A DNA stretch of 64,000 nt from Anaerolineales bacterium (GCA_963662985.1 OY760067.1:1502100-1566099), one strand, 5' to 3'. Positions 45,831-64,000 are shown, numbered from the stretch's first letter. Notes: generated from the sequence alone by a model not told the origin. A program made the numbers and translations.

Positions 45831-45851
45831 AAACGTTGAATGATTAATTAG

Positions 45852-45882
45852 AGAGCTGGTGTGATGCCAGCTCTTTTGTTTT
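45852..45882 (+). terminator. Intrinsic terminator; also the point where composition changes
   Basis: AGAGCTGG-tgtgatg-CCAGCTCT followed by TTTTGTTTT. Confidence 0.75.
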
Positions 45883-45905
45883 AAGTTGGGTGTGAGGGTG
45901 AGCGG

Positions 45906-46607
45906 TTATTGAATGAGGGAGAGGTAGTGATTGAGGACCCCGAAGGCGAAAAGGAGCTGGCCGAGTTGATAGAAGATACGGCTGATGAGGCGCGTGTATT
46001 TGTGTTCGATGACCCATTGACGATAGCCGAGTAATGAGTCGGCGTAGAACATGGAGAAGGCTCCAAGGGCGGCAAAGTAGGAGAATAAGGGGTTGCTCTT
46101 CCAGAGGAAGAAGGAGCTGATGGCACGGTAGAGGGTGGAGGAGATGACGATGAGGTAGAGTAGGGAGGGAGCGTATAGGTCAAGGATTTTGCGCGCATTC
46201 ATGACCCGTTGGAGGAGATAGGCGAAGAAGATGACAACGGGAACAAAGAAGATGGCGAGGAAGATGCTGGGCGCGAGGGTGCTGGATTGGAAGACGGGGG
46301 TGATGGCGAGGTTATAGGCGATGTGGGCGAGGAGGAAGAGGAAAAGACCGAGTTTGAAGGGACGTTTGGGGAGCATGAGGGTGATGTCTCCGGCGAGGGA
46401 GAAGGCGAGGCCAATGAGCACCCAAAGGATGTTGCCTGCGGAGGTGCCGATGAATTTGGTGTTGCCGATTTGAATGAAGGCGGTGATGAGGATGGCGATG
46501 ATGACGAGCGGTTTGGTGATGTAGCCAAGTTTGATTTTTTTTGTTTGTAGGGCGTACCAGTCGGCGACCATGATGAGCAGAACTGGGAGTAGGAGTAGGT
46601 AGTTCAT
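45906..46607 (-). CDS. YhhN-family membrane protein (lysoplasmalogenase-like)
   Basis: 233 aa polytopic protein with a YhhN-like layout (KPLVIIAILI..., LAFSLAGDITLM..., FYADSLLG). The coding strand is conspicuously C-rich. Confidence 0.65.
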   Translation of the reverse strand: MNYLLLLPVLLIMVADWYALQTKKIKLGYITKPLVIIAILITAFIQIGNTKFIGTSAGNILWVLIGLAFSLAGDITLMLPKRPFKLGLFLFLLAHIAYNLAITPVFQSSTLAPSIFLAIFFVPVVIFFAYLLQRVMNARKILDLYAPSLLYLIVISSTLYRAISSFFLWKSNPLFSYFAALGAFSMFYADSLLGYRQWVIEHKYTRLISRIFYQLGQLLFAFGVLNHYLSLIQ

Positions 46608-46643
46608 GAGGATCCTTTGCGCGCTGTGCGAGGGGTTGGTGGG

Positions 46644-47570
46644 CTAGTCTTGTTTGCCGTAGCCGAAGCGATCTAGGAAGGCGTCGTCGTTGCGCCAGTT
46701 TTTGCGGACTTTGACTCGTAGGCGGAGGAAGACTTTGCGGCCGCTCATGGCTTCGATAGAATTGCGAGCGGAGGAGCCGATGCGTTTGAGCATTTCGCCT
46801 CCTTTGCCGATGACGATGCCTTTTTGGGAGTCACGCTCGACGAAGAGAGTGGCTTCGACATAGGCGCCGTGGTCTTCGCGTTCGGTATATTCGTCTACAC
46901 GGACGGCGATGCCGTGGGGGACTTCGTCTTTGAGGAGGATGAGGGCGGCTTCGCGGATGAGGTCGGCGGCGATGTCGCGTTCGTAGAGATCGGTGATTTG
47001 ATCTTCTGGGTAGAGTGGGGGACCTTCGGGGAGCATTTCGATGATTTGTTGGGTGAGCTCGGCGATGCCAAGGCCTTTGCGTGCGGCGATGGTGATGCTT
47101 TGGGAGGCGGGGACGAGGGCTTGGTATTCTTGGATGCGGGCGGCGAGCTTGGTTTGGTCTGGGACGAGATCGAGCTTGTTGATGACGAGGAGGAGGGGGG
47201 TGGTGAGGTTGGCTTCGTGAATGGCTTCAGCGATGATGAAGTCTCCTTCTTGGGGTGGGGTGCTGGCGTCTACGAGGAAGAGGATGAGGTCGTTTTCTTC
47301 TAGGGTGGAGAGGGCTTCTTCGTTCATTTTTTCGCCGAGTTTGTGTTTGATTTTGTGGACGCCGGGGGTGTCTACGAAGATGAGTTGGGCTTGGTCTTCT
47401 AGGGTGAGGATGCCGAGTTGGTTTTTGCGGGTGGTTTGGGGGCGAGGGGAGACGGCGGCGATTTTTTGCCCGAGGAATTTGTTTAGGAGGGTGGATTTGC
47501 CGGCATTTGGTTTGCCGATGATGCTGATATAGCCAGCACGATAGTTGTTGTTTTGGGTATTTTCTGTCAT
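46644..47570 (-). CDS. era: GTPase Era
   Basis: GKPNAGKSTL, DTPGVH, NKLD, and the C-terminal KH domain (IVIGKGGEMLKRIG). Confidence 0.95.
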   Translation of the reverse strand: MTENTQNNNYRAGYISIIGKPNAGKSTLLNKFLGQKIAAVSPRPQTTRKNQLGILTLEDQAQLIFVDTPGVHKIKHKLGEKMNEEALSTLEENDLILFLVDASTPPQEGDFIIAEAIHEANLTTPLLLVINKLDLVPDQTKLAARIQEYQALVPASQSITIAARKGLGIAELTQQIIEMLPEGPPLYPEDQITDLYERDIAADLIREAALILLKDEVPHGIAVRVDEYTEREDHGAYVEATLFVERDSQKGIVIGKGGEMLKRIGSSARNSIEAMSGRKVFLRLRVKVRKNWRNDDAFLDRFGYGKQD

Positions 47571-47636
47571 AGGTGTATTATACAGGTAATTGAGGGAAAG
47601 GAATATGGGTTTTGGGATATGAGGTTGTTTGGGCCC

Positions 47637-47664
47637 TTGCTTGTGGGGCAGGTTGGTTTATAAT
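47637..47664 (+). promoter_or_regulatory. Putative sigma-70 promoter of tRNA-Ser
   Basis: TTGCTT (47637-47642), a 16-nt spacer, then TATAAT (47659-47664). It ends 10 nt before the tRNA 5' end. Confidence 0.5.
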
Positions 47665-47673
47665 ACGACGGAT

Positions 47674-47762
47674 GGAGAGGTGCCAGAGTGGTTTAATGGG
47701 GCGGTCTCGAAAATCGTTGTAGTGCGCTAGCGCTACCGTGGGTTCGAATCCCACCCTCTCCG
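47674..47762 (+). tRNA. tRNA-Ser, anticodon CGA
   Basis: I folded it by hand. The acceptor stem is GGAGAGG/CCTCTCC. The D-stem is 3 bp with a GG loop. The anticodon loop is CTCGAAA. The long variable arm has a 7-bp stem. The T-arm is GTGGG-TTCGAAT-CCCAC. The discriminator is G, and no CCA is encoded. Confidence 0.88.
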
Positions 47763-47817
47763 CTGTTTTCTTTTTTCCCATTTTTTGTTTTGAATTTTTT
47801 AAGGTTGTTTTTTTTGG

Positions 47818-47910
47818 GTTGCCAGAATGTGCCAAGGCGGGTTTTGTTTGGTGCAGGAGGTGCCCTGGGGTGGGTTTTGCTGTGCCAGATGGTGCCAGGG
47901 TTTTGGGCGA
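47818..47910. repeat. Three degenerate ~31-bp tandem units just 3' of tRNA-Ser
   Basis: Units start at 47818, 47849 and 47880. Each has a (T/G)GTGCC(A) core followed by a GGGTTTTG tail. Unit 3 (GTGCCAGATGGT) resembles the tRNA D-arm segment GTGCCAGAGTGGT. Confidence 0.5.
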
Positions 47911-48110
47911 AGTGTGTTATTTAGTGCTTGAATTGCTTTTTAATTCTTTATTTAAATATAAAATGTATTTTTATATTATTTCTAAAATCTAGTTATATTT
48001 TTATTAAGTTATTATATCTTATTTCAGTTTTGGGCGCTGAGAAAAAAAGTGATGGAGTTGTTTTTTTGGTGTGTTTTTTCCCAGTGGGGGTGTTTGATTT
48101 TGTTAAGGTA

Positions 48111-48160
48111 CAGAACGTATGTTCTGTTTATATTATAGCGGATGTGTGGGGTTTTGTCAA
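48111..48160 (-). promoter_or_regulatory. Consensus sigma-70 promoter overlapped by a perfect LexA (Cheo/SOS) box
   Basis: On the minus strand: TTGACA (48155-48160), a 17-nt spacer, TATAAT (48132-48137). CAGAACGTATGTTCTG (48111-48126) contains GAAC-N4-GTTC across the expected transcription start. Confidence 0.6.
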
Positions 48161-48430: not shown

Positions 48431-48582
48431 CGTTTTGTTTGTCAAATTTGTTTGGAGGAAGTTTTGGTTTGTTGTTATAATTTGGGCTATCAATGGTTTG
48501 GAGTGGGTTATATGATGACTTTCTTTTTTTTTTATTTTTTAATTTGCATTGGGGATATGTGGGTTTTTGATGAGGAGGATTT

Positions 48583-49229
48583 ATGGGGTTGGCTGATTAT
48601 AATAAGAAGTTTGATTTTAAGGATTTCTTTATTTTACTAATTTTAATATTGATTTGTGAATCGTCTTTATTGTTTGAATTTTTACTTGAAAAAGAGATAA
48701 GACTTTATATATGGAAATATTCATTTATTTTTGATTTGCTTTTTATTATCTTATTGCTTTTGAATAAAATAATAAAAAGCAATATTTTTTATACTATAGC
48801 TACTTAGCTACTTTTTTTAACCCTGCTTTTCGTCTTATGTTTAACTTAGCTTTTGGATTAATAATACGTTTTTTTGGTTTTAATTATTCATGGTTTATTC
48901 CTATAGTTATTATTTATTTCTCAATTTATCTTTTGATTTTAATTCCAGATGATAAATTAGTTATTATTAATAAATTTTTTGTTGATAGTAAAGTGATAAG
49001 TATTGGATTAGTTTTGCTTGGTTTTTTCATTGCTTTTGATAATAACAGGTATGTACTTCGATATAAGGTGCCTGGTAGTTTTAGAGAGATGTCTGGAATT
49101 CTTAGGGCTGGAATAGGAGTAATTATTTTAAATTTTTATTTTATAGTTTTGGCTGTTTCAAGTATAAAGAAATCGTATAAGAAATTCGATAATGAGAAAT
49201 TGCGGAAGAAAGGTTTTGTTGAGGAATGA
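48583..49229 (+). pseudogene. Array copy 1 (type A) of the six-TM paralog family, disrupted by an 8-bp tandem duplication
   Basis: Track ORFs 48583-48807 and 48837-49229 join into one full-length homolog of copies 3 and 5 if the second TAGCTACT (48805-48812) is removed. Confidence 0.8.
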
Positions 49230-49251
49230 GTGGGGTTTTGGAGGAGGATTA

Positions 49252-49896
49252 ATGGGATTTGCTGATTACACAAAAAAAATTACTTTAAAAGAAATTTTAT
49301 ATTTCTTTTTAATAACTTTTGGAACAGAGTCCGTTTTAATTTTTACATTTATGCTAGATAAAAATATACGAATTCAAATTTGTAAGTTTAATTTTTTATT
49401 TGATTTTATTTATTTTTTTTTACTATTGATAAACAAATACTTAAAGAGTAATTCGATATATATAATTTCACTTTATTTCACTTCAGCTTTTCGTATGATT
49501 GCAAATATGGCTATTGTTTTTATAATTTATTCGATAGGTTTTAGCTATGATTGGTTTTTACCTTTAGTTATCATTTATAGTTTATTTTGGCTTCATTTAC
49601 TATTTCCAGCAGATCAATTAAAAAAAATAAACACTTTTTTTATAGAAAGTAAAATTGTAAAAATAGTTTTGTTGATTCTGATTTCAATAACTATTTTTGG
49701 AAATAATCGTTATGCAATAAGATATAAAAGTATTGAAAGTATAAATTCAGGATTTTTATGTTTTGGATTAGGAACTATTATTTTTAATTATTACTGGATT
49801 ATTTCAGGAATTACTTCAGCAAAAGAATCGATAAAAATTTTTGAAAATAGAAAATTAAAGTTGGAAGAAAGAGAAGCAGAAGTTGTTGAGGGATGA
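49252..49896 (+). CDS. Array copy 2 (type B), ~214-aa six-TM protein of unknown function
   Basis: MGFADYTKK... N-terminus, SD GGAGGAGGA, and type-B C-terminus ENRKLKLEEREAEVVEG. Confidence 0.75.
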   Translation: MGFADYTKKITLKEILYFFLITFGTESVLIFTFMLDKNIRIQICKFNFLFDFIYFFLLLINKYLKSNSIYIISLYFTSAFRMIANMAIVFIIYSIGFSYDWFLPLVIIYSLFWLHLLFPADQLKKINTFFIESKIVKIVLLILISITIFGNNRYAIRYKSIESINSGFLCFGLGTIIFNYYWIISGITSAKESIKIFENRKLKLEEREAEVVEG

Positions 49897-49921
49897 AAGA
49901 GGGGTTTGAGAAGGAGGATTT

Positions 49922-50560
49922 ATGGGGTTAGCTGATTATAATAAGAAGGTTGATTTTAAGGATTTATTTTATTTAATATTATTAACTATCTTTTGTGAAT
50001 CATTTTTATTTTTAACATTTATGATAGAAAAGAAAATTCGGAGTCAAATATGGAAGTATTCAATTGTATTCGATTTATTCTTGTTTATATTATTAATTTT
50101 GAATAAAAAATTTAAAAGTAATTTATTATATTTTTTAGCATCAATTTTTTTACCAGTTTTGAGACCATTGTTTATTATGGGAATTGTATTAATTATAAGG
50201 ACAATTGGATTTGATTTCTCTTGGTTTATTCCAATTGTAATTTTTTATTTTTCTATTTGGTTTTTGCTTTTTTTACCTTCTGATAAATTAGAAACTCTTA
50301 ATAATTTTATTGTCAATAGTAAAGTAGCGTCAATTATATTATTTTTTATTATCGCATTTAGCATTTTTGATAATAACAGATATATAGTGAGATATAAAAT
50401 ACCAGGAAGCATTAGAGAAATTTCAGGTGCTATTAGATTAGGGTTTGGTTTAATAGTATTCAATTATTATTTTATTTTATTAGTCGTTACAGCTTTAAAA
50501 AGATCAAGTATAAAATTCACTGATGAGAAATTGCGGAAGAAAGGTTTTGTTGAGGGGTAA
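49922..50560 (+). CDS. Array copy 3 (type A), 212-aa six-TM protein of unknown function
   Basis: MGLADYNKK... N-terminus, SD AAGGAGGA, and type-A C-terminus DEKLRKKGFVEG. Confidence 0.75.
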   Translation: MGLADYNKKVDFKDLFYLILLTIFCESFLFLTFMIEKKIRSQIWKYSIVFDLFLFILLILNKKFKSNLLYFLASIFLPVLRPLFIMGIVLIIRTIGFDFSWFIPIVIFYFSIWFLLFLPSDKLETLNNFIVNSKVASIILFFIIAFSIFDNNRYIVRYKIPGSIREISGAIRLGFGLIVFNYYFILLVVTALKRSSIKFTDEKLRKKGFVEG

Positions 50561-50584
50561 GTGTTTTTTTGATGAGGAGGATTT

Positions 50585-51229
50585 ATGGGATTGCCTGATT
50601 ATACAAAAAAACTTAATTTAAAAGATTTTATATATTTCTTTTTATTAACAATTGGAACTGAATCGACTTTATTGTTTGCATTTATGCTGGAGAAAAATAT
50701 TCGTATTCAAATATGGAAGTATTCAATATTGCTTGATTGTATTTGTATATTTTTATTAATAATAAATAAATTTTTAAAGAATAAATATGTTTATATTTTG
50801 GCAAGTTTTTTTGCACCAGTTTTACGTATGATCTCGAATATGAGCATAGTTTTTATAATTTACTCAATTGGATTTAGTTATAAATGGTTTTCAATTGTAG
50901 TAATACTATATTGTTTAATTTGGTTATTTTTACTTTTTCCAAAAGATCAATTAAAAAAAATAAACACATTTTTTGTTGAAAGTAAAATTGTAAAAATAAT
51001 TTTATTGATAGTAATTCTAATTGCAATTTTTGGAAATAATCGTTATGCAATAAGATATAAAAGTATTGAAAGTATAAATTCAGGATTTTTACGTTTTGGA
51101 TTAGGATTTACTGTATTTAATTATTACTGGATAATATTAGGAGTTACTTCTATTAAGGAATCAATAAAAATATTTGAAAATAGAAAATTAAAGTTGGAAG
51201 AAGGAGGAGTAGAAGTTGTTGAGGGATGA
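50585..51229 (+). CDS. Array copy 4 (type B), 214-aa six-TM protein of unknown function
   Basis: MGLPDYTKK... N-terminus. It shares an identical 60-nt stretch with copy 2 (49699-49758 = 51032-51091). Confidence 0.75.
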   Translation: MGLPDYTKKLNLKDFIYFFLLTIGTESTLLFAFMLEKNIRIQIWKYSILLDCICIFLLIINKFLKNKYVYILASFFAPVLRMISNMSIVFIIYSIGFSYKWFSIVVILYCLIWLFLLFPKDQLKKINTFFVESKIVKIILLIVILIAIFGNNRYAIRYKSIESINSGFLRFGLGFTVFNYYWIILGVTSIKESIKIFENRKLKLEEGGVEVVEG

Positions 51230-51251
51230 AAGAGGGGTTTGAGGAGGATTT

Positions 51252-51893
51252 ATGGGATTGCCTGATTATAATAAAAAACTAACCTTTAAAGATTTTTTTG
51301 TTTTATTATTATTGGTTTTTTTATCTGAATCTTTGTTATTGTTAGCATTTTTACTAGAAAAAGAAATTCGAATTCAAATATGGAAATTTTCATTTATATT
51401 TGATCTTATATTCTTTTTATTATTATTAATAAATAAAATTATTAAAAGTAATGTAATTTATACAATTGCTACAATTTTTAACCCATCCTTTAGAGCAGTT
51501 ATAAATTTAGCTCTTATTATTCTTATTCGATATATCGGATTTAATTATTCTTGGTTTATTCCAATAGTGATAGTATATTTTTCCATGTATATTTTAATTT
51601 TTTTACCTGAAGATAAATTAGAAAGTATTAAAACGTTTTTTTTAGATAGTAAAGTGATATCAATAGGTTTATTTTTACTTTTTCTTTTCAGCTCAATAGG
51701 TAATAATAGATATGTTGTAAGATATAAAGTCCCTGGAAGCTTTAGTGAATTATCAGGTGCTGTTAGGTTGGGAATAGGTTTATTGATTATAAATTATTAT
51801 TTTATGATATTAGCTTTAACTACAATAAAAATCTCGTACAAACAATTTAATGATGAAAAATTGCTGAAGAAAGGTTTTGTTGAGGAATTATAG
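51252..51893 (+). CDS. Array copy 5 (type A), 213-aa six-TM protein of unknown function
   Basis: MGLPDYNKK... N-terminus and type-A C-terminus DEKLLKKGFVEEL. Confidence 0.75.
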   Translation: MGLPDYNKKLTFKDFFVLLLLVFLSESLLLLAFLLEKEIRIQIWKFSFIFDLIFFLLLLINKIIKSNVIYTIATIFNPSFRAVINLALIILIRYIGFNYSWFIPIVIVYFSMYILIFLPEDKLESIKTFFLDSKVISIGLFLLFLFSSIGNNRYVVRYKVPGSFSELSGAVRLGIGLLIINYYFMILALTTIKISYKQFNDEKLLKKGFVEEL

Positions 51894-51953
51894 AGGGGTT
51901 TAATAAATATAATTCTCATTTCTTTCTGATTAATTTAAGGGTAGAAATTAAGG

Positions 51954-52773
51954 TTGAAGATGCTAGATAAAAAATTATTGGAAAAGTACCAACTTGTATT
52001 TAAAAGAAATTATAAATTTTTTTATGATCTATGGGATAAAAAGGATTTATCTGAAATTTCGAATAATGATCTAATTTTTATTGGTTATTCTTTATTTGAA
52101 TTTTCAAAAAGAATTATTAATAAGAATAAAAGAGATTTATTGTTAAGTGAATCTAGAGATGTTTTGAATTTAATTTGTTTAGAAGATCTAAATGAATATG
52201 AAAAAGCTATTTATGATGAGTTTTTATTTTATATTAATTTTAGTGATTATTCTGATGAAGAGATTCTATTTAAATTGGAAGAAAATGTTGTTGATTTCCC
52301 TTTCTTAGGGAAATCGATGCTTAAGTTAGCTAAAACAAAAATTGATGAAAAAAAAATGATGATGCATTAATGCTTGCTGAAAAATTAGTGTCTATTTTTT
52401 CGTCCGATACATATTTACAATATTTTTATTTTGATATATTGATTTTGTTAGATAAAAAGGCAGTGGCTAGAAAAAAGATAAAAGATACGGAAAATAATAT
52501 AATAAAATTAATTTTTTTATACGTTTGTTCAGAGAGAAATATATTATTTAATTTTGCTATAGTTTAATTTATTTGTTTATTTCTTATTTAATAATTGAAA
52601 AATTATATTTAGGCTTAGTTGTTGTTATCTTATTAGTGGTTTTAATTAATTTTTTATTTTATTTATATCGATATTTGACAATTATTATGTTTAAAAATGA
52701 TTGGATAAAGAAAATTTTTGTGTCAGTCCCAATATTGGTTTTGTTTCATATTGTTAGACTTTTTCTGGTGTGA
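51954..52773 (+). pseudogene. Fragmented paralog of the 52828-53652 gene, split over three reading frames
   Basis: ORFs 51954-52370, 52370-52567 and 52573-52773 are collinear with the N-terminal, middle and TM parts of the neighbouring 274-aa protein. One example is LNEYEKAIYDEFLFYINFSDYSDEEILFKLEENVVDFPFLG versus LSLEEQSIFEEFQLFYNVYFNDYEEIKFDELISKFPYLG. Confidence 0.6.
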
Positions 52774-52827
52774 TGAAGTTGATTGAAAAAAAATAATAAG
52801 GATATTTAGGCGAGGATTTCAGTGTTT

Positions 52828-53652: not shown

Positions 53653-53668
53653 AATTTGACAATTTTTT

Positions 53669-53694
53669 GACTGCCCTTGAGGCAGTCTTTTTTT
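53669..53694 (+). terminator. Intrinsic terminator closing the AT-rich island
   Basis: GACTGCC-cttga-GGCAGTC followed by TTTTTTT. Confidence 0.8.
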
Positions 53695-54958: not shown

Positions 54959-55057
54959 ATTTCAAATAGTAGCACTTAATGAGTAAAACGGAAAGTTTTT
55001 AGTTTCGGGGAATGATATTATGATTTAGTAATATAAAAAATTAATGTATGGTAATAT

Positions 55058-57170: not shown

Positions 57171-58828
57171 TGAAAAAATTTTTTGATGATGTGAAGATTT
57201 TGGTCCGTTTGTTGGTTCACTTGAAGTCTTTGACGTTTGTGATGATGTTGACCATTTTGTTTGGGGTGTTGGGGTATCTTGCGGCTTCGGGGATTCTTGT
57301 TTTTTCTGTTTTGGGTGCGATGCGTTTTTTGGGATTGGCAATTTCTATTCCGATTAAAAGAGTGGTGTTGGTGGTGATTGTTTTGGCGGTTGGGCGGGGA
57401 TTTTTTAAGTATTTTGAACAATTATCTGGTCACTTTGTGGCATTTCGGATTTTGGCTGATTTACGGTCTGAGGTTTTTGAAAAGCTGAAAACTTTGGCTC
57501 CGGCGAAATTAGATTTGAAAGATCAGGGAGATTTGGTGACTATTTTGACTGCTGATGTTGAAGCATTGGAAGTGTTTTATGCACATACGATTGCGCCGAT
57601 TATGATTAGCCTTTTGACAGGGCTGGTCTTTTTAGGGGGTCTGTTTTGGATCGATCCTGCTTATGCTTTGTTGGCTTTGGGGGCTTATGTGTTGCTTGGG
57701 GTTGTGCTTCCTTTTGTTTTTCGCTATTTATCGGATGCAGATATGGCGAAATATCGAGAAGGGTTTTGGCAGTCTAATTCTTATTTTTTGGATGCTTTGC
57801 AGGGATTGAGTGTGACTTTGTTTTTTGGCTATCAGGAAAAAAGCAAGGCTGCGATTGAAAAGCGGTCTGAGGCGTTGAGTGATCAAATTGAAAAAGTGAA
57901 AAAGATGGAAGCGATTAATTTTGCTATGTTTGACGGTTTGGTTTTGCTTTTTATGATGTTGAATTTGCTGATGGGGGCATGGTTGTGGTCGGCAGGGAGG
58001 GTTGATTTTTCAGGCGTTTTGGTTTCTTTTGTGGCATTTTCCTCTTCTTTTGGGGCAGTGAGCGCGATTTCGGCTTTGTCTACTGTTTTTTCGGGGACGA
58101 TTGCTTCGGCAAGACGGCTTTTTGAAGTTTTGGATGAAAGCCCTTTGGTGGAGGAAGTGGCGGGAGAGGATGTTTTGAGAACTGCTGATTTTGATTTTGA
58201 TCAAGTGGGATTTTATTATCCAAATCGAGAGAGGTGGGTTTTGAAAGATTTGACGTTTTCAATGAGAGAAAAGGGGATTTTGGCGATTGTTGGAGAGAGT
58301 GGGGTGGGGAAGAGCACGATTTTGAAATTGATGATGCGATTCTATGACCCTATTTTGGGGCGGGTGTCGCTTGATGAGGTCTCTTTGGATGAGATGGCGA
58401 CGAAGACTTTGCGGGGAACGCAGGCATTGATTGCTCAGAAAACATTTTTGTTTAATGCGACGATTGAAGAGAATATTCGGATGCGCAATTTTGAAAAGCC
58501 TTTTGAGGATGTGGTGCGGGCAGCGGAGAAAGCGGCGATTCATGATTTTGTGATTTCGTTACCGGAAGGATATGCAACGCCGGTGGGTGAATTGGGGGAA
58601 CGATTATCTGAAGGACAAAAACAAAGGATTGGGCTGGCGAGAGCTTTTTTCAAGGATAGTGAGGTTTTGCTTTTGGATGAACCGACAAGCAATTTGGATG
58701 TGTTGAATGAGGCGGTGATTTTGAAAAGCCTTAAAGAAGGAGCTGGCGACCGACAGGTTGTTTTGGTGTCTCATCGACAGAGCACCACTGCGATTGCTGA
58801 TGAAATTTTTGATATTACTGAACGATAA
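57167..58828 (+). CDS. ABC exporter half-transporter (TMD-NBD), CydC-like partner
   Basis: 553 aa. Walker A GESGVGKST, signature LSEGQKQRIGLARAF, Walker B LLLDEPTS. It overlaps the upstream gene by 4 nt. Confidence 0.88.
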   Translation: MMKKFFDDVKILVRLLVHLKSLTFVMMLTILFGVLGYLAASGILVFSVLGAMRFLGLAISIPIKRVVLVVIVLAVGRGFFKYFEQLSGHFVAFRILADLRSEVFEKLKTLAPAKLDLKDQGDLVTILTADVEALEVFYAHTIAPIMISLLTGLVFLGGLFWIDPAYALLALGAYVLLGVVLPFVFRYLSDADMAKYREGFWQSNSYFLDALQGLSVTLFFGYQEKSKAAIEKRSEALSDQIEKVKKMEAINFAMFDGLVLLFMMLNLLMGAWLWSAGRVDFSGVLVSFVAFSSSFGAVSAISALSTVFSGTIASARRLFEVLDESPLVEEVAGEDVLRTADFDFDQVGFYYPNRERWVLKDLTFSMREKGILAIVGESGVGKSTILKLMMRFYDPILGRVSLDEVSLDEMATKTLRGTQALIAQKTFLFNATIEENIRMRNFEKPFEDVVRAAEKAAIHDFVISLPEGYATPVGELGERLSEGQKQRIGLARAFFKDSEVLLLDEPTSNLDVLNEAVILKSLKEGAGDRQVVLVSHRQSTTAIADEIFDITER

Positions 58829-58925
58829 ATTTTGGCTTGGTATATGGTTGAGATAGCGTTTTTTTTGATTCTGAAAAAAAATATCGATGCTTGCCATGGG
58901 GGGGAGTTCGTGATTAAATTGATTT

Positions 58926-60104
58926 ATGAACGAAATTACTTATCGACATATTTTACTTAAAGATCTGGTGCCTTGGGCTGAAGAAATTGTGAGTAAGGCA
59001 GGTGAAGGCGACTTTGTGCCGATTACTTTGCATCGTGCGGAGGCAATGGCGGCGAACCCTTATGGGGCGCCGGAAGATGTGAGCATGATTGCGGCTTATT
59101 TGGGGGATAAGTGTGTGGGCTATTTTGGGGTGATGCCGATTATGGTAAAGCTGGGGGATGTGTTGGAGAAGATTTCTTGGTTTACGACTTGGACCGTGGC
59201 TCCGGAAACGCAGGGGATGGGCGTGGGAAGCGGGTTGTTGAAATCGGCTTTGACGATTGAAGAAGATTTTATGATTGTGGGGAGCCATTTTGCGGTGCGG
59301 GCTTGCGAGAAGCAAGGGTTTGCACGGTTTGAAGATTTTGAATATAGCATGATTGATTTGCGATTGTTGGGGAAGTATAACCCTGTGTCTGTGGGGATGC
59401 GTTTGTTGCGCAAGGCTTCGACTGTGGTGGGGAAGGAATGGCAGGTGGAGCCGAAGATTCAGAAGGTGAATCAGTTTTTTGCGAAGTTTTATGTGCCGAT
59501 GGTGGGGGAAACAATTTATGCAAAGACGTTGAAGGAATTGGATGCAGCGGTGACGTTGGAAATGAAGGGGATTGAGATTCGACGCGTGCCGAAGGTGGCG
59601 GAGATTGAATTGGAACTGTTGCCTGAGTTTGCTTTTTTGCGTGATGAAAAGGTGATTAATTGGATGCTGAATTATCCTTGGGTGGCAAAGACGGGGGAAT
59701 CGGCTACGGAAAAGATGAATTATTATTTTACGGATGCGCGAGATGAATTTGAGATGCAAGCGTATGAATTTTATGAAGGGGCGAAACGCGTGGCTGTGGT
59801 GACTTTGATGGTGACGAAGATTGGGAAAGATCGACGTCAGGTGCGTGTTTTGGATTGTTTGGCGGAGGATGCGCTGTTGCCATTGATTCGTAAGTTTGTG
59901 GTGGATGTGGCGCAGGACTATGGGGCGGTGCAGATGATGGGGGATGTGCGGGTGCTGGGTGCTTTGGCAGAGACGGCGATAGGGAAGGTATATGAAGTCA
60001 AGGAACGCACGTATCAGACGATGACGAAGAAGGATTCTGTTTTCGCAAAGGATTGGGAGAAAATCACAAAACGATTTGCAGATGGCGACATGGCGTTTAC
60101 TTAG
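58926..60104 (+). CDS. Hypothetical protein with an N-terminal GNAT-like acetyltransferase motif
   Basis: 392 aa. VGYFGVMPI...WTVAPETQGMGVGSGLLKSAL resembles the GNAT acetyl-CoA-binding motif A. I do not recognise the remainder. Confidence 0.5.
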   Translation: MNEITYRHILLKDLVPWAEEIVSKAGEGDFVPITLHRAEAMAANPYGAPEDVSMIAAYLGDKCVGYFGVMPIMVKLGDVLEKISWFTTWTVAPETQGMGVGSGLLKSALTIEEDFMIVGSHFAVRACEKQGFARFEDFEYSMIDLRLLGKYNPVSVGMRLLRKASTVVGKEWQVEPKIQKVNQFFAKFYVPMVGETIYAKTLKELDAAVTLEMKGIEIRRVPKVAEIELELLPEFAFLRDEKVINWMLNYPWVAKTGESATEKMNYYFTDARDEFEMQAYEFYEGAKRVAVVTLMVTKIGKDRRQVRVLDCLAEDALLPLIRKFVVDVAQDYGAVQMMGDVRVLGALAETAIGKVYEVKERTYQTMTKKDSVFAKDWEKITKRFADGDMAFT

Positions 60105-60195
60105 GATGTGAGTGCTAGGAAGCTGTTTCAATGCTGTTGTTTAATGAAATTGTTGAGCTTTAGAAACACCTTTCTTTAAAAGAAAAGAAGTGATT

Positions 60196-61218
60196 ATGAA
60201 AGAAAAAATTAAAGGATTGGTAAAAAAATCTTTACGGTTTGTGCCGTTGAGTGTGTTTAAAGAATTGTTCCCGATGGAGTTGACGGGATTTTTCTACCAT
60301 GCGGTGACGAATGGGGAGATGCTGCATGTGAAGAATTTATATCCGCCAGTTTCAGCTGAAGATTTTGAGGCAACTTTGGTGGCATTGAAGAAACGCTATA
60401 CGTTTGTGAGCTATGCGGATTTGGTGGCGGCGTTTGAAGGCAAGGCATATTTGCCTAAGAAAGCGGCTCATTTATCTTTTGATGATGGGTTTGTGGAAAA
60501 TTATACGGTGGTGATGCCCATTTTGCAGAAGTTGGAAATTCCATGTATGTTCTTTTTGACGAGTGAATGGATTGATAATCAGGCGTTGTTCTATCGTTCG
60601 AAGGTGTCTTTGTGCGTGGAGAAAGTAAATACGATGAATGAGGCGGCGTTGAATGCTTCTATTGAGACGATTGGTGATGATGGGGTGACGGACAAGGATT
60701 CTTTGCTACGGAAGGTGATGCGTTTTAAGCAAGAAGATGAGGATGAAGTGAGCCGTTATTGTGCGGCGTTGGGGGTGGATACGGATGCGTATTTGAAGGA
60801 AGCACAACCATTTTTGAGTACAGTGCAGATTCAAGAGATGTATGCGGCGGGATTCACTTTTGGGGGACATTCGGTTTCACATCGTAAGTTTGTGCAGTTG
60901 CCTGTGGAACGAGTGGAAGCGGAGATTGTGGATTCTTGCAAGAAAATTCAGGAAATCACGGGGCAGAAAGAAGTGCCGTTTGCGTTTCCGAACAGTGCAA
61001 CGGGGTTTGATCGTAAGTTGTTGACTGAGATTCGTGAAAAAAATGTGGTGTTGGGGTTGATTTTTAATTCAAAAGGATTGTTGCCGGATGAGCCTTATTT
61101 GTTTAATCGAATTTGGATGGAACGAAAATTGAAAAATGGGAAGCGAACGTGGCAGGCTTATTTGAAGGATGCCTATGAAGGATTTGTGTGGGATAAGATT
61201 TTGAATTGGCGACGATAA
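60196..61218 (+). CDS. Polysaccharide deacetylase (NodB-homology, CE4-like)
   Basis: HLSFDDGF (Asp-Asp motif) and GGHSVSH (His-His motif). ATG 60196 is preferred over GTG 60190. Confidence 0.78.
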   Translation: MKEKIKGLVKKSLRFVPLSVFKELFPMELTGFFYHAVTNGEMLHVKNLYPPVSAEDFEATLVALKKRYTFVSYADLVAAFEGKAYLPKKAAHLSFDDGFVENYTVVMPILQKLEIPCMFFLTSEWIDNQALFYRSKVSLCVEKVNTMNEAALNASIETIGDDGVTDKDSLLRKVMRFKQEDEDEVSRYCAALGVDTDAYLKEAQPFLSTVQIQEMYAAGFTFGGHSVSHRKFVQLPVERVEAEIVDSCKKIQEITGQKEVPFAFPNSATGFDRKLLTEIREKNVVLGLIFNSKGLLPDEPYLFNRIWMERKLKNGKRTWQAYLKDAYEGFVWDKILNWRR

Positions 61219-61230
61219 GGTTGATTATGA

Positions 61231-61266
61231 AAGAGGTGGCCCTTTGATGGACCACCTCTTTTTTGT
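61231..61266 (+). terminator. Intrinsic terminator between convergent genes
   Basis: AAGAGGTGG...CCACCTCTT followed by TTTTGTTT. Confidence 0.75.
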
Positions 61267-61983
61267 TTAATTGGTTTTTTGTTTTTGATAGAGCCAGATG
61301 CTGATGACCACCATGATGAGGATGATGCAGAGCATGGGGAAGAGCTGCAAAAAGTCGATGGTGGTTGATTGCATGGCGGTGAATCCCCAATAGGCGGGGA
61401 GGAGCTGGCCGATTTTGCCGAGGACTGGGGGGAGGAGATCGATGGGGAACATGATGCCGGCGAGCATGACGGAGGGGAGGAAGAAGATTTGGGAGATCAT
61501 GGTGAGGCGGGAGGCGTTTTTGACGGCGAGGCCGAGAACGGTGCCGATGTAGATGCTAGATATAAGGAAGAAGATGAGGCCTATGAGGAAGGGAAAGATG
61601 GCTTGAGGAGGCGTGGCTCCGAAGGCTAGGGGGGAGATGAGGATGATGACCAAGCTCATGAGGAAGAGATGGAGGAAGGCGGAGATGAAGTTGTTGAGGA
61701 TGCCTGTCCAGAGTGGGATGCGACCGACTTGATAGGCTTTTTTGATGTCACTGTTGAATAGGTCTACTAAGGGAGAGGGGGTGCCAAGGAAGGCGCCCAT
61801 GGTGGCCCCAAAGACAACCATGGTTTGAACGAGGGTGTCTTTGGCGGTGGGGTTGATGGAGGAGAAGATGCCGCTCATAAATGCAAAGAAGAGCAGGGGG
61901 ACGACGTAATAAGTGAGGAGGATGCTGCGATTGCGAATGTCTAGTTTCCATTGTAATTGGATGCCGTTTAGGAATGCTTTCAT
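61267..61983 (-). CDS. ABC-2 type transporter permease
   Basis: 238 aa with six TM segments. It abuts the upstream ATPase gene, sharing 1 nt. Confidence 0.72.
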   Translation of the reverse strand: MKAFLNGIQLQWKLDIRNRSILLTYYVVPLLFFAFMSGIFSSINPTAKDTLVQTMVVFGATMGAFLGTPSPLVDLFNSDIKKAYQVGRIPLWTGILNNFISAFLHLFLMSLVIILISPLAFGATPPQAIFPFLIGLIFFLISSIYIGTVLGLAVKNASRLTMISQIFFLPSVMLAGIMFPIDLLPPVLGKIGQLLPAYWGFTAMQSTTIDFLQLFPMLCIILIMVVISIWLYQKQKTN

Positions 61984-62846
61984 TATTTGACCTCTCTTGC
62001 AATTTCGATAAAGCGTTGTTCTAGGGTGGCGTGTTCGATTTTGATGTCTTGAACGGTGTGATTGTTTTGGTTGGCGTATTGAAGGAGCTCGATGAGCCCT
62101 TGACTGATGTCTTTGGTGGTGAAGATGGCGTAGTCTTGTTTGTGTTGTTCAAATTCAGAGAAGGTGAAGTTGGTGGGTAAAATGGGATCTGTTTTGATGT
62201 GGATGTTATAGAGGGCGCTGACGGAGCTGGTGAGTTGAGCAGCGGTCCCGATGAAGGCGATGTGTTTTTGATCGAGGATGGCGATGCGGTCACAGAGGCT
62301 TTCGACTTCGGCCATGTCATGACTGGCCATGATGAGGGTTTTTCCTTGTTGTTTGAGGGAGCGGATGACATCATGCAGGGAAGCGCGGGCTTCGACATCT
62401 AGACCGGCAGAAGGTTCGTCTAGGAAGATGATGTCGGGATCGCCGATGAGGGCGATGGCGAGATGGAGACGACGCTTTTGACCGGTGGAGAGTTGGTGAT
62501 ATTGGAGGTCTTTGATTTGGTCGATGCCAAAGGTGTGGAGATGATCGGGATTGGGGGTGGTTTTGTTCCAGAGGGAGAACATTTGAATGGCTTCGATTGG
62601 CTTGATCTCTTTGGGGAGGGAGGTGGATTGAAGTTGGACGCCGAGTTTGCCGTTGACTTGGATGGTGCCATTTTGATAGGAACGGAGACCTTCGATACAT
62701 TCTAGGGTGGTGGTTTTGCCGGCGCCGTTGGTGCCGAGGAGACCAAAGATTTCACCTTTTTGAATCTCAAATGAGATGTCTTCTATGACGGGGGTGCTGC
62801 CATAGGATTTGGAGAAGTTCTCCACTTTGATGATGGGGTGATTCAT
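61983..62846 (-). CDS. ABC transporter ATP-binding protein
   Basis: Walker A GTNGAGKTT, signature LSTGQKRRL, Walker B IFLDEPSAGLD. Confidence 0.92.
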   Translation of the reverse strand: MNHPIIKVENFSKSYGSTPVIEDISFEIQKGEIFGLLGTNGAGKTTTLECIEGLRSYQNGTIQVNGKLGVQLQSTSLPKEIKPIEAIQMFSLWNKTTPNPDHLHTFGIDQIKDLQYHQLSTGQKRRLHLAIALIGDPDIIFLDEPSAGLDVEARASLHDVIRSLKQQGKTLIMASHDMAEVESLCDRIAILDQKHIAFIGTAAQLTSSVSALYNIHIKTDPILPTNFTFSEFEQHKQDYAIFTTKDISQGLIELLQYANQNNHTVQDIKIEHATLEQRFIEIAREVK

Positions 62847-62890
62847 TTTTTTTACTCCTTAATTGTCCCTTTTTGATGCTTGAACCTTTT

Positions 62891-63664
62891 TTAGATTTGA
62901 ATATTGTTTGATTTGAAATAAACATTGACGGCTTCACTGATGTAGTCGGTGATATAGAGCTGCCTTTGTTTGATTTCTTCGTCCCATTGGTCTTTGCTTT
63001 CTTCAAAGTCCATGAGTTTGTTGAGGAGTTGCATGTCGCCACCGGTGAATTCGGTGACCATGTTCCAGAATTCATGGGTAATTTTTTGTGCGACGGGAGA
63101 GGAGGGGGAGATACCTTCTTTTTTTAGTTTGTAAAATTGGTTGCTGAGGTGGTCCCATGTTTTGTAGAGATTGGCGCTGATTTGTTGGTCTTGTTCGTAT
63201 TTGGTTGAGATGTGTTCTAGGAGGGAAGGGTCCATGTGTTTGACGGGCCAGATGTTTTCGTTTTTGATGCGGAGCATGTAGATGATGGTGGCGTATTTAT
63301 CGAAATCGACCTCTTGCATTTGGGTGACTTCTTTTTCGAGCTGTTGGATGGCTTGTTGAATGTGGTGGAGGTGTTGGATTTGTTTTTGAATGGCATTTTT
63401 TTGATTTTTGAGCACTTCGAGAACTTCATCTGGAGTGTTGAGGGGGATGAGGTTGTTTTTGATCTGGTCTAATGAAAATCCAAGGTATTTCATGGAGAGA
63501 ATCTGGTATAGTTTGACCACCTCTTTTTTTGAATAGCGCCTTTTGCCTTGCGCATCTCGGTGAGATGGTTTGAGAAGATCAATCTTATCGTAGTATTGTA
63601 GGGTGCGAGCGGTGATATCCATTTTATTGGCAAGTTCGCCGACGGTGAGTAGCTCTTCTTTCAT
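62891..63664 (-). CDS. MerR-family transcriptional regulator with a long C-terminal effector domain
   Basis: LTVGELANKMDITARTLQYYDKIDLLKP is a MerR HTH. It is followed by a coiled-coil and a C-terminal domain of about 130 aa. Confidence 0.9.
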   Translation of the reverse strand: MKEELLTVGELANKMDITARTLQYYDKIDLLKPSHRDAQGKRRYSKKEVVKLYQILSMKYLGFSLDQIKNNLIPLNTPDEVLEVLKNQKNAIQKQIQHLHHIQQAIQQLEKEVTQMQEVDFDKYATIIYMLRIKNENIWPVKHMDPSLLEHISTKYEQDQQISANLYKTWDHLSNQFYKLKKEGISPSSPVAQKITHEFWNMVTEFTGGDMQLLNKLMDFEESKDQWDEEIKQRQLYITDYISEAVNVYFKSNNIQI

Positions 63665-63692
63665 TTTTTGCTCCTTTTCTCCTCTTGGAGGA

Positions 63693-63723
63693 ATTATACA
63701 ACGTTACGTTACGTAATGTGCAA
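63693..63723 (-). promoter_or_regulatory. MerR-type promoter with a 19-bp spacer containing a palindromic operator
   Basis: On the minus strand: TTGCAC (63718-63723), a 19-nt spacer, TATAAT (63693-63698). The spacer contains TTACGT-T-ACGTAA (63704-63716). Confidence 0.65.
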
Positions 63724-63795
63724 GGGTGAAAGTGGAAAATGTGCGTTTCAAAAGTCTAGCGGTATAATTTAACAAAAAAGGAAGTTTGCAGAGCT

Positions 63796-64000
63796 ATGAA
63801 AGAATGGACAAAACCAGGGTTGGCATTGCCGGAAGCATTGAAGGGCAATGAAACAGGAACTTTTGCAGGAAACACGGTGCGGAAACGGATGCCGGCGATT
63901 GGGCGAAAGATGATGGCGGATGCTTTCTTTGATGAGCCGACCAATGAGCGATTGCGAGATATGTTTGATGGGATGCCTGATGGAAAGATTACTTTGATGG
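63796..64000 (+). CDS. Hypothetical protein, 5' part only (possibly DUF89/ARMT1-like); runs off the right edge
   Basis: My translation reads MKEWTKPGLALPEALKGNETGTFAGNTVRKRMPAIGRKMMADAFFDEPTNERLRDMFDGMPDGKITLM. The G/T-ending codon usage matches the other plus-strand genes in this region. The family guess is weak. Confidence 0.4.
   Translation, partial: MKEWTKPGLALPEALKGNETGTFAGNTVRKRMPAIGRKMMADAFFDEPTNERLRDMFDGMPDGKITLM

Follow-up and report, generated by a model that had tools for sequence, protein, structure and literature searches.

A saw-tooth of strand-specific G-enrichment in an Anaerolineales genome and its possible link to secondary replication initiation zones

The plus strand of the window (the whole 64-kb stretch of Anaerolineales DNA analysed) becomes abruptly G-rich at position 45852, which raises the question of whether the switch reflects the way in which the chromosome is replicated or a junction between DNA segments of different history.

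Strand composition across the window

Computation bears out the strong switch described in the initial annotation. Plus-strand GC skew rises from +0.162 (38201-45851, GC 0.375) to +0.424 (45852-64000, GC 0.393, AT skew -0.135), a step of +0.286 with 5-kb flanks that ranks at the 99.8th percentile among all positions of the 2.37-Mb contig (sd 0.094). The four hand counts on which the description had relied are exact (47221-47280, G23/C11; 61381-61440, G26/C12; 56101-56160, G22/C7; 5701-5760, G6/C20), as is the quoted start of era. The step lies, as had been stated, at a convergent gene boundary, in an intergenic spacer with a terminator hairpin (45831..45905); here the right arm, with its strong enrichment, has its inner edge, which is found also in a congener. 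The change is most apparent at third codon positions. To the left of the step the plus-strand NBR1-Ig-like gene (45057-45830) has a GC3 of 0.28 and a GC3 skew of +0.10, whereas yhhN-era (45906..47570, minus strand), the first genes with full enrichment, display values of 0.76 and +0.79 (yhhN) and 0.68 and +0.89 (era). GC3 thus moves from 0.28 to ∼0.7, with GC3 skews rising to +0.8 to +0.9 on either gene strand; plus-strand genes at 55-61 kb have GC3 skews of +0.77 to +0.80 at a GC3 of 0.44-0.56. Throughout the genome, genes of both strands have equal GC3 skew when it is read on the plus strand; the G-richness is thus independent of gene orientation, in agreement with the earlier description.

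The reversed polarity reported for the left end is also present. Positions 1..18700 constitute a left arm with a C-rich plus strand (skew -0.176, or about -0.18; GC 0.386; GC3 skew to -0.7), which is weak relative to the arms of other sources in the genome. The middle is AT-rich, again as described: 18701..38200 is a neutral core (computed skew -0.009, GC 0.342) with a GC3 of 0.17-0.31 on both strands, typically ∼0.2, and G3 and C3 each at ∼0.1. Its genes encode a histidine kinase and response regulator, GlgP-like, LysM/Flg_new, YkuD, PBP1, APH, SdaA and Mdh proteins. The polarity switch sits in this core, at 18.7-38.2 kb, and is distinct from the 45.85-kb step, where the right arm has its sharp inner edge. 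Between the two is a plateau of low G-enrichment (38201..45851; skew +0.16, G3 0.15-0.21 versus C3 0.06-0.13) that carries 6PGDH-like, YitT, PBP-like, UppP, Tgt, RarA, YdcZ and NBR1-Ig-like genes. In this genus yitT and yhhN are separated by an inserted block of ∼5.6 kb (40.2-45.8 kb), which may sharpen the edge of the step.

To the right, a block with a GC of only 0.22 (48601..53650, plus strand) consists of tandem ORFs of ∼213 aa without Pfam match. It has a skew of +0.36, cannot be aligned with the congener and is probably a younger insertion inside the arm that has been enriched only in part. The right arm continues at 53651..64000 (skew +0.44, GC 0.45) and falls to a skew of ∼0.05-0.1 another 120-150 kb out, giving a total length of >150 kb.

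A genome-wide saw-tooth and its TGGCAC elements

The likeness to a replication origin proposed in the initial annotation holds for the polarity of the switch and for its kind, a point at which strand asymmetry diverges, but this is not the origin of the chromosome: the genome contains ∼15 points from which extreme one-strand G-enrichment runs outward, and the window holds one of them. The composition switch at 45.85 kb is real and is one tooth of a saw-tooth. Teeth are uniform in shape, with an abrupt up-step followed by near-linear decay across 100-300 kb until the opposite arm of the next source is reached. Steps of at least 0.35 (15-kb flanks) comprise five up and none down, while the declines cross zero gradually (at least six crossings). 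Each up-step has an AT-rich core of 6-60 kb with a GC3 of ∼0.2, no skew and ordinary genes. The outward strand (5'→3' away from the core) gains G at the expense of A most, then of C and T, and its polarity, G>C and T>A, is canonical for a leading strand. Each arm covers roughly half the distance to the next source, and the mid-zones are little enriched on either strand; to the left of the window core the opposite-sign arm shows C3 of up to 0.29 across 100 kb. Another genus of the family lacks the saw-tooth (GC 0.60-0.63, |skew| ≤0.08), and around era the skew in other Anaerolineales is ≤0.15.

A classical macro-V is superimposed on the saw-tooth, with its cumulative skew minimum at C2:1,287,241, 250 kb from the window step and at the centre of the 1278k/1296k bracket. 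Asymmetry of the arms is consistent with one dominant zone and additional weaker zones. The initial annotation had found no dnaA gene and no clear DnaA boxes; the gene is indeed absent from the 64-kb window, where the boxes are at chance level (25 versus 22.6 expected), and dnaA, at C2:1.088 Mb, coincides with no switch. The G-rich strand carries both rRNA operons, 32 of the 46 tRNA genes and ∼60-64% of genes (z=2.8 against a circular-shift null).

G-enrichment peaks within a few kb of inverted TGGCAC-repeat elements that bracket the cores. The element is ∼300 bp in length, contains three TGGCAC-pair/AAAACCACC units and often lies downstream of an inward-reading sigma70 promoter and LexA box. 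It was confined to this genus among the 31 genomes searched. At all 21 element loci the orientation agrees with the local sign of the skew, although this rule might be inflated if elements in the 'wrong' orientation erode faster. The step at elements averages 0.32 against a null of 0 ± 0.03, and in a meta-profile outward-strand G climbs from 0.17 to 0.29 within 8 kb and is again at baseline ∼105 kb out. Inverted pairs surround six cores, including that of the window. Here the left member is a degenerate plus-strand copy between infB and GH1 (13241..13280; nhmmer E=0.0016 and alignment), of which about one unit remains. The right member (47820..47899, minus strand; nhmmer E=3.6e-15) has three ∼32-bp units, in each of which a pair of TGGCAC-like half-sites, 10 bp apart, is accompanied by a AAAACCCACC-like spacer. 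It is adjoined by a tRNA-Ser(CGA) gene (47674..47763, plus strand) at the place of the distal part in full copies. Positions 48113..48160 (minus strand) hold a promoter of the sigma70 type (TTGACA-17-TATAAT), directed inward to the element, and after it a perfect LexA box, GAACATACGTTC (48113-48124). Enrichment begins 1-3.5 kb inside the elements, the 45.85-kb step being 2 kb inside the right-hand copy; the elements are thus most likely polar gates or regulators of the zones rather than start sites. No Rep_3 initiator, other initiator gene or DnaA-box cluster was found at the cores.

A proposed replication initiation zone and alternative explanations

Our leading interpretation, to which we assign a probability of about 0.4, is that the source in the window is a putative secondary replication initiation zone. 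Divergent forks would depart the core in both directions, and their polarity would be visible in the sequence because strand-specific mutation bias is extreme: the outward strand, as lagging-strand template, would be subject to a strong transition bias favouring AT→GC, with GC→AT on the complement. Fork polarity would drop with distance from the zone, as forks from neighbouring zones and from C2:1.287 Mb, the presumed dominant origin-like point, copy the same DNA oppositely in some cell cycles. Such distance-dependent polarity would leave arms directed away from the dominant point long and strong (window right) and those facing it short and weak (window left). The elements themselves would carry an inward-directed promoter under SOS control. 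Substitutions between this genome and its sister species accord with fork polarity, as third-position A<>G exchange per A site amounts to 0.47 for the G-rich and 0.13 for the C-rich strand, with 0.30 for either strand of mid-zones, so that the sum of the two arm strands is conserved relative to mid-zones. Against initiation zones, the cores are at baseline (G3 = C3 ∼0.1), whereas under a simple polarity model both should be enriched to an intermediate degree; extra exposure of both core strands must therefore be assumed. Furthermore, gene orientation is fitted no better by the saw-tooth (56.8-59.6%) than by one or two switches (58.6-59.4%), and in the left macro-arm it ignores the saw-tooth (41% versus 34% of genes on the plus strand). 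Many long-standing origins are thus unsupported, and the zones would be recent or conditional.

Alternatively, replication may run from a single origin near C2:1.287 Mb and leave little skew, as in relatives, with conditional outward synthesis beside each core in addition. We regard this as a less likely alternative; that gene orientation largely conforms to two arms counts in its favour. In such a scheme DNA damage would cause LexA-controlled elements to license DnaA-independent, error-prone copying of limited processivity, an analogue of inducible stable or break-induced replication. The gradient left on the displaced or late-copied strand would be of the dose type. In E. coli, inducible stable DNA replication (oriM) is SOS-induced and DnaA-independent, and LexA control of the elements would resemble it, although oriM sites, unlike the elements, are not defined repeats. 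Of the 21 elements, 13 have LexA-type boxes in their outer 450 bp (14 boxes versus a null of 3.3 ± 1.9; one on the inner side), and five of the ten perfect intergenic boxes adjoin elements, the operator motif being validated by the one perfect box of lexA itself. The promoter-plus-box layout is common to the window copy and the 540k copy, and DNA-damage genes (Ogt, AlkD-like) adjoin some elements. The dose-like shape, with exempt cores, low mid-zones and arms of about half the inter-source distance, also fits, as does the failure to find a Y-family polymerase in this genus. However, the promoters point inward rather than outward, enrichment starts inside the elements, and a rare stress event would have to dominate the entire substitution record, with GC3 skew of up to 0.9. 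In addition, the conserved A<>G sum behaves as if every replication round counts, and a search for genus-specific recombination-restart or extra polymerase genes identified none.

It is improbable that the elements act instead as polar 'reset' sites on a chromosome with a single origin, where permissive fork passage would raise exposure or error of the lagging-strand template, through re-priming, exchange of polymerase or accessory factors or a loaded mutagenic factor, with an effect that fades over ∼100 kb and a saw-tooth along the direction of travel. Past 1.82 Mb in the right macro-arm and at 0-0.4 Mb all elements are on the minus strand, and after those at 1899k, 2016k, 2151k, 60k, 122k, 221k and 400k the skew shows a renewed positive rise and is never negative; the majority of copies are, moreover, co-oriented with their own macro-arm. 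Opposite-sign arms within macro-arms (the C-rich arm left of the window core; 1722-1778k; positive teeth at 532-580k and 945-1020k) would nevertheless require opposite movement, the neutral cores between inverted pairs are left unexplained, and no replisome mechanism of this kind is known.

A relic of rearrangement is very unlikely. Here the chromosome of an ancestor with two extreme arms would have been shuffled by numerous inversions, possibly between copies of the element, leaving the saw-tooth as a slowly decaying record. Inverted segments move skew, element and gene orientation together, which would render the 21/21 rule trivial, and genes are indeed reversed in the negative patches of the right macro-arm (37% versus 65% on the plus strand). 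Unpolarised substitution ratios are also near the calculated expectation for a decaying relic with symmetric rates. Inversions predict, however, equal numbers of abrupt down- and up-steps, which is not what is seen, and the positive patches of the left macro-arm are not inversions since genes there are oriented as in the rest of that arm (31-42% on the plus strand). The era-yhhN-yitT-6PGDH-like adjacency over the window step is ancestral, being present in many Anaerolineales genera, which also argues against the rearrangement breakpoint considered in the initial annotation. The two species show no rearrangement despite third-position divergence of 25-36%, and their skew profiles agree segment by segment (2 Mb collinear, 80-95% identity). 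G sites on the G-rich strand are threefold more stable than those in cores, and asymmetric change is ongoing: in a polarised check, an IS copy in a C-rich domain had nine private T>C against one A>G (10 changes only).

The abrupt change exactly at a gene boundary in a metagenome-assembled genome might suggest that an artefact or foreign DNA begins at 45.85 kb, through a chimeric join, contamination by another contig or acquisition of a large segment. This is refuted as far as sequence can show, as the independently assembled sister species has the identical junction at the same gene boundary (86.5% identity over window 36.6-48.2 kb), the neighbours are ancestral, the core genes are ordinary with no mobility genes among them, the long G-rich arm belongs to a pattern that recurs ∼15 times with the same anatomy, and genome completeness and contamination are 97% and 1.5%.

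Comparison with known replication systems

The switch in the window resembles that at a bacterial oriC, the single DnaA-dependent origin of two replichores, in its plus-strand change from C>G to G>C, the G>C and T>A outward strand, some co-orientation of genes, tRNAs and rRNAs, and a global cumulative minimum. In contrast to oriC there are ∼15 switches, not one, none at dnaA or with a DnaA-box cluster; the skew decays with distance instead of being flat, each switch has a neutral AT-rich core of 6-60 kb, and the amplitude exceeds that around the same gene in Bacilli by a factor of 2-3 (0.4-0.6 versus 0.15-0.19, with GC3 skew to 0.9). Saw-tooth shape and broad zones are shared with the skew N-domains of human and yeast, where abrupt upward jumps at broad initiation zones are followed by a near-linear fall through zero, interpreted as graded fork polarity that results from stochastic use of origins and stochastic termination (PMC3320577, PMC4729899, PMC3459929). 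The present case differs in its bacterial host, with DnaA and a single DnaE, in an amplitude higher by an order of magnitude, in the defined inverted repeat elements on either side of the zones and in cores without enrichment, a feature not expected from polarity alone. Several initiation sites per circular chromosome, some dormant or conditional, occur in Sulfolobus and Haloferax (PMC4595724, PMC3000693), as is proposed for this prokaryotic chromosome; archaeal origins have Orc1/Cdc6, ORB boxes beside initiator genes and weak skews, whereas searches of the cores here yielded no initiator gene.

Like Tus-Ter of E. coli and RTP-Ter of B. subtilis, the elements are short cis sequences with several putative protein-binding sites, an orientation that may be locked to the direction of replication, and opposed sets that bracket a zone. 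They differ in bracketing origin-like up-steps rather than a terminus, in their unrelated sequence and in the attached SOS promoter; searches found no Tus or RTP homologue, and fork arrest is only a candidate function. Their three direct repeat units, which are in helical phase and precede an A/T-rich stretch, recall iteron origins (lambda ori, theta plasmids), from which the elements are distinguished by the lack of a detected Rep_3 initiator, the 21 chromosomal copies and an enrichment that does not start at the element. Finally, vertebrate mitochondrial DNA displays a graded strand-specific A→G bias that scales with position, as with single-stranded time (PMC3269012), and the gradient here is similarly graded. 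Unlike the mitochondrial case, the exposed strand shows no C→T excess over the cores, the teeth are numerous and bidirectional, and purine content rises, so that transversions to G also contribute. No precedent was found for such an apparent multiplicity of replication start zones on one bacterial chromosome.

Composition of the window and conservation of the step

Plus-strand GC skew in the window is −0.18 between 1 and 18.7 kb, close to zero between 18.7 and 38.2 kb (where GC content is 0.34), +0.16 between 38.2 and 45.85 kb and +0.42 between 45.85 and 64 kb. Measured with 5-kb flanks, the step at position 45,852 amounts to +0.29, placing it at the 99.8th percentile of the contig. These values, together with per-gene GC3, bear out the initial annotation, which had described from 60-nt hand counts (exact when recomputed) a left part of reversed skew, an AT-rich middle and a plus strand that is G-rich to the right of 45,852 irrespective of gene orientation. 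The last gene to the left of the step displays a GC3 of 0.28 and a GC3 skew of +0.10. To the right, yhhN (GC3 0.76) and era (GC3 0.68) have plus-strand GC3 skews of +0.79 and +0.89, respectively, while for plus-strand genes farther right the value is ∼+0.78. Genome-wide, plus-strand GC3 skew is equal for genes of either strand, head-on genes being slightly more extreme, demonstrating that the signal is specific to the DNA strand and independent of transcription. The G-rich strand has an excess of T as well, which is the canonical leading-strand signature.

The host genome is a metagenome-assembled genome of an Anaerolineales (Chloroflexota) bacterium, comprising two contigs (C1 and C2, the latter containing the window) that total 3.0 Mb, with a GC content of 0.39 and a completeness of 97%. 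A sister species of the same genus, assembled independently, is collinear with this genome across at least 2 Mb at a nucleotide identity of 80–95%. The step occurs at the identical convergent gene boundary in the sister species, and skew is equal in the two organisms in all 54 of the 54 sampled 20-kb segments. The order and orientation of era, yhhN/yitT and a 6PGDH-like gene across the step are kept in many other Anaerolineales genera. The block at 15–45 kb contains ordinary chromosomal genes, encoding PrsW, PBP1, Mdh, SdaA, Tgt, UppP, RarA and others, and the Pfam matches between 15 and 55 kb include no mobility genes. The shared junction, the ancestral adjacency and the ordinary gene content contradict the three alternatives to an origin that had been raised initially. 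A chimeric assembly is improbable, as judged from the recurrence of the junction and step in the congener. A horizontally acquired island is rejected by the lack of mobility genes, the collinearity of the block in the sister species and the ancestral neighbours across the step, and an inversion or other rearrangement breakpoint by the lack of a synteny break against relatives and by the exclusively upward direction of abrupt steps. A local genus-specific insertion between yitT and yhhN (window 40.2–45.8 kb) may sharpen the edge of the step.

A genome-wide saw-tooth and its substitution record

Along both contigs skew rises in abrupt up-steps and then declines gradually through zero, reaching −0.3 or −0.4. 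Counted with 15-kb flanks, five steps of at least 0.35 go up and none goes down, and there are ∼15 comparable skew switches in the genome. The cores, the neutral AT-rich stretches at the up-steps, have G3 and C3 values of ∼0.1 each, and A3 and T3 values of ∼0.4 each. To the right of a core G3 alone increases (0.3–0.5) and C3 does not exceed baseline; on the left side C3 alone increases; and midway between the up-steps, or skew sources, both are ∼0.18. The saw-tooth is an enrichment in G of the strand running 5′→3′ outward from each core, at the expense of the other bases (A loses ∼45%, C ∼33% and T ∼25%), which peaks beside the core and fades over 100–300 kb. The enriched flanks, or arms, are long and strong when directed away from C2:1.287 Mb, and short and weak when facing that position. 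Beyond 1.8 Mb the saw-tooth is one-signed. The combination of abrupt upward jumps, gradual declines through zero and independence of transcription corresponds to the shape of the skew N-domains of human and yeast, which, with their initiation zones, resemble the pattern described here in how it works (PMC3320577, PMC4729899, PMC3459929). The literature searched contained no report of a saw-tooth skew in bacteria. We class the feature as a new form of replication-type strand asymmetry.

Elsewhere in the Anaerolineales |skew| around era is ≤0.15, in Bacilli it is 0.15–0.19, and a contiguous genome from another genus of the family has a GC content of 0.60–0.63 and |skew| ≤0.08 throughout. The comparison indicates that both the saw-tooth and the decrease in GC from ∼0.6 to 0.39 are derived traits of this genus.

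Differences between the two species follow local skew, with r=−0.89 for the excess of C/T over A/G and r=+0.89 for that of G/T over A/C. At third positions A<>G differences per A site are 0.47 on the G-rich strand, 0.13 on the C-rich strand, 0.30 on both strands of the mid-zones and 0.23 in cores; per G site they are 0.29 on the G-rich strand and 0.91 in cores. The summed strand-specific per-A values are equal in arms and mid-zones, and the log ratio of per-A to per-T differences tracks GC3 skew (r=0.98); these third-position differences are unpolarised, and by calculation a decaying relic with symmetric rates would yield similar ratios. In a polarised test, an insertion sequence (IS) copy in a C-rich domain carried nine private T>C changes vs one A>G, compared with two vs one for a copy in unskewed DNA; small as these numbers are, the bias has the predicted sign.

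Recent IS insertions and variable low-GC blocks form unenriched or partly enriched patches. An IS-like repeat of ∼1.07 kb, present in five copies of 93–99.9% identity (C1:383636, 558225, 612601 and 616005; C2:967546), is unenriched where it lies within skewed domains. A block of the second kind occupies 48.6–53.65 kb of the window, where DNA with a GC content of 0.22 contains four tandem paralogous plus-strand ORFs of 212–234 aa (49192–51893), which have no Pfam match and are flanked by shorter ORFs (48837–49229 and 51954–52370). In the sister species, to which the ORF block cannot be aligned, another low-GC block, of 8.5 kb, occupies this location.

The repertoire of repair and polymerase genes was considered as a source of the bias. 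MutS is encoded in the genome, arguing against its loss as the cause; EndoV was not found in any of the 15 genomes searched, relatives alike; and only one DnaE is encoded, the same number as in relatives. A Y-family (IMS/DinB-type) polymerase was found in neither species of this genus, and in eight of the nine other relatives searched. Among these genes it is the only one missing specifically in this genus, and an N→G outcome would not obviously follow from it.

TGGCAC elements flanking the cores

Comparison of the up-step regions revealed a ∼300-bp repeat that they have in common. The element consists of three ∼32-bp units, in each of which a AAAACCACC-like spacer accompanies two TGGCAC half-sites 10 bp apart, a conserved A/T-rich block and, often, a CTATGCGCA motif. 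A profile search of the genome located 21 loci, and orientation matches the sign of local skew in 21 of the 21, ‘+’ copies residing in C-rich DNA and ‘−’ copies in G-rich DNA. Inverted pairs flank six cores, at C1 407k/422k and at C2 509k/540k, 888k/955k, 1278k/1296k, 1515k/1550k and 1769k/1816k. The pair at 1515k/1550k is that of the window, comprising a degenerate copy at 13.24–13.28 kb and a second copy at 47.82–47.90 kb. Smaller up-steps carry single copies. The mean skew step at elements is 0.32, vs 0±0.03 at random placements. In a meta-profile, outward-strand G climbs from 0.17 at −12 kb to 0.29 at −4 kb, and falls linearly to baseline at ∼105 kb outward. Strong enrichment extends 1–3.5 kb coreward past each element; there it falls off steeply, in most cases where a terminator separates convergent genes, to a low plateau that fades over 5–10 kb. 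The 45.85-kb step of the window, 2.0 kb inside its element, is a typical inner edge. No motif is common to the sharp inner edges, of which four out of five are intrinsic terminators at convergent genes, and no core-specific k-mers were found besides the elements.

Among the 31 related genomes searched, the multi-unit element was restricted to this species and its sister species. All copies detected in the sister species are at orthologous positions and in the same orientation, leaving no natural element loss for comparison. The element has no match in Rfam. The 524-kb contig C1 of the sister species starts and ends within the core of the C1 skew source (equivalent to C1:417–421k of the genome studied). 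Element copies are located ∼12 kb (11.9 kb) after the start of this contig and ∼4.4 kb before its end. This may mean that C1 is a circular replicon of its own, opened in the core, or that the assembly broke there.

Similar to Tus–Ter and RTP–Ter sites, in which orientation is locked to replication direction, the elements have a fixed orientation (here relative to skew sign) and occur in oppositely oriented sets. The known sites, however, flank the terminus, whereas the elements flank origin-like up-steps, and neither Tus nor RTP (PF05472 and PF02334) was found in the genome. Direct repeats in helical phase, here with a 32-bp period, followed by an A/T-rich conserved block are reminiscent of iteron origins. 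No Rep initiator was evident among the genes of two complete cores and the element neighbours, and Rep3_N was not found in the genome. The logic of the elements recalls polar Ter sites and their form recalls iteron origins, but they probably belong to neither class. A σ54 promoter has the form TGGCAC-N5-TTGCW with a fixed GG-to-GC spacing, TGGCAC being the −24 half. Inspection of the elements showed that the next GC is one nucleotide too close and that the −12 consensus is missing, so they were rejected as σ54 promoters. The genome encodes RpoN, or σ54 (C2:92258–92698, minus strand), for which the array spacing is non-canonical.

Beside its element the window contains, on the minus strand at 48113–48160, a perfect σ70 promoter (TTGACA-17-TATAAT) followed after 7 nt by GAACATACGTTC, a perfect LexA box of the GAAC-N4-GTTC type (48113–48124). 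The promoter has no downstream ORF and is directed inward, towards the TGGCAC arrays. The arrangement is a regular feature of the outer side of the elements, and the copy at 540k has the same layout. LexA-type boxes (at most one mismatch, within 450 bp of the element) are found on the outer side, away from the core, in 13 of the 21 elements, totalling 14 boxes compared with a null of 3.3±1.9 and with a single box on the inner side. Of the ten perfect intergenic LexA boxes in the genome, five abut elements and one is upstream of lexA, most of the others being in or at cores. The box at 447816, upstream of lexA itself (C2:447054–447761), validates the operator. From these sequence matches the elements are predicted to be under SOS (LexA) control.

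Genes neighbouring the elements include those for an Ogt-type methyltransferase and an AlkD-like glycosylase. A dCTP-deaminase-like protein (357 aa; C2:400526–401599, plus strand), whose gene is divergent from a perfect LexA box that adjoins one of the elements, was a candidate for a nucleotide-pool cause of the bias. As the gene is missing from the sister species it cannot explain the shared pattern. PADLOC returned no match for this protein or for eight unknown proteins beside elements. A search for a MobA-type relaxase was negative, with one marginal coupling-protein-like match.

Replication layout and interpretation

A change from C>G to G>C led the initial annotation to consider a replication origin in the window. 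The polarity of the switch (−0.18 to +0.42) stands, but the switch is not unique, has no DnaA-box cluster and is remote from the global minimum of cumulative G−C, which is at C2:1,287,241, the centre of the 1278k/1296k bracket. The gene dnaA (C2:1,088,360), like this minimum, is outside the window, 414 kb from its start, within a smooth negative slope that contains no switch. The reported absence of clear DnaA boxes is consistent with the 25 boxes (at most one mismatch) found in the window vs 22.6 expected, and no cluster of more than five relaxed boxes per 600 bp occurs genome-wide. These data reject the window as a DnaA-dependent oriC. The replication-restart gene priA (C2:1286228–1288744, minus strand) is at the centre of the 1278k/1296k core, at the global minimum, and rarA/mgsA (window 42943–44370, plus strand) is in the core of the window; the presence of such genes in cores may be coincidence. 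An ORF of 448 aa with two tandem DnaA-like AAA+ modules (C2:2316446–2317435, plus strand) is not at a skew switch, and similar tandem matches occur in most relatives.

The G-rich strand carries both rRNA operons, 32 of the 46 tRNA genes and 60–64% of genes (circular-shift null for co-orientation, z=2.8; 0/2000 shifts reach the observed value). The rRNA operons are 100% identical and mutually inverted (C2:895339–901067, minus strand, and 1684864–1690592, plus strand), each co-oriented with the local G-rich strand, and the first is just inside the 888k/955k bracket. If the cores were instead fixed termini, with initiation dispersed and the leading strand rich in C, the rRNA operons, most tRNA genes and most genes would be head-on; this bias makes such a layout unlikely. 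As proof of many origins gene orientation is weaker than hoped, since a one- or two-switch layout fits equally well (58.6–59.4%; best switch ∼1.23 Mb). To the right of the global minimum, orientation follows the saw-tooth (65% vs 37% of genes on the plus strand) and flips with skew in individual patches; to the left it does neither (41% vs 34%).

The most far-reaching interpretation, with a probability of roughly one in three, is that ∼15 initiation zones replicate one bacterial chromosome, each gated by inverted LexA-controlled TGGCAC arrays. The simplest account is one dominant origin-like zone and ∼14 secondary zones, the latter possibly SOS-conditional. Forks from each zone would be replaced progressively with distance by those of neighbouring zones, and an extreme lagging-template mutation bias in this genus would record fork polarity and so make the pattern legible. 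The anatomy suggests that the elements act beside the zones, as polar gates or regulators, and are not themselves the start sites. In cores neither strand is enriched and GC→AT exchange is highest, which would require additional single-strand exposure of both strands there, or a different mode of replication.

The main rival to these initiation zones is a single origin, with arms produced by SOS-licensed, error-prone outward synthesis of limited processivity. Such synthesis would fit the dose-like shape of the arms and the LexA link, but it is at odds with the inward-facing promoters and with the constancy of the summed strand rates. A ‘reset element’ model covers only part of the pattern, accounting for the one-signed teeth beyond 1.8 Mb but not for arms of opposite sign. 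A relic of rearrangement fails, as abrupt down-steps are absent, tooth shape is uniform, synteny is ancestral and positive patches retain the gene orientation of their arm.

The textbook view of the bacterial chromosome is that of a single-origin replicon, and skew plots serve to locate the origin and to judge the correctness of metagenome assemblies. This bacterial genus has ∼15 origin-like switches, with amplitudes that are the largest among the comparisons found (GC3 skew up to 0.9), in a saw-tooth that is conserved between species and linked to a new family of polar, putatively SOS-regulated repeat elements. On such genomes skew-based origin calling and skew-based mis-assembly checks would both fail. 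If the sources are not initiation zones, they would reflect a strand-specific mutagenic DNA transaction extending 100–300 kb from defined sites, which is equally novel. If they are initiation zones, they would provide evidence from sequence, the first of its kind, that Bacteria can use several replication origins regularly or conditionally, and supply candidate cis elements; the sequence would then be a natural OK-seq record, making multi-origin replication in Bacteria directly testable.
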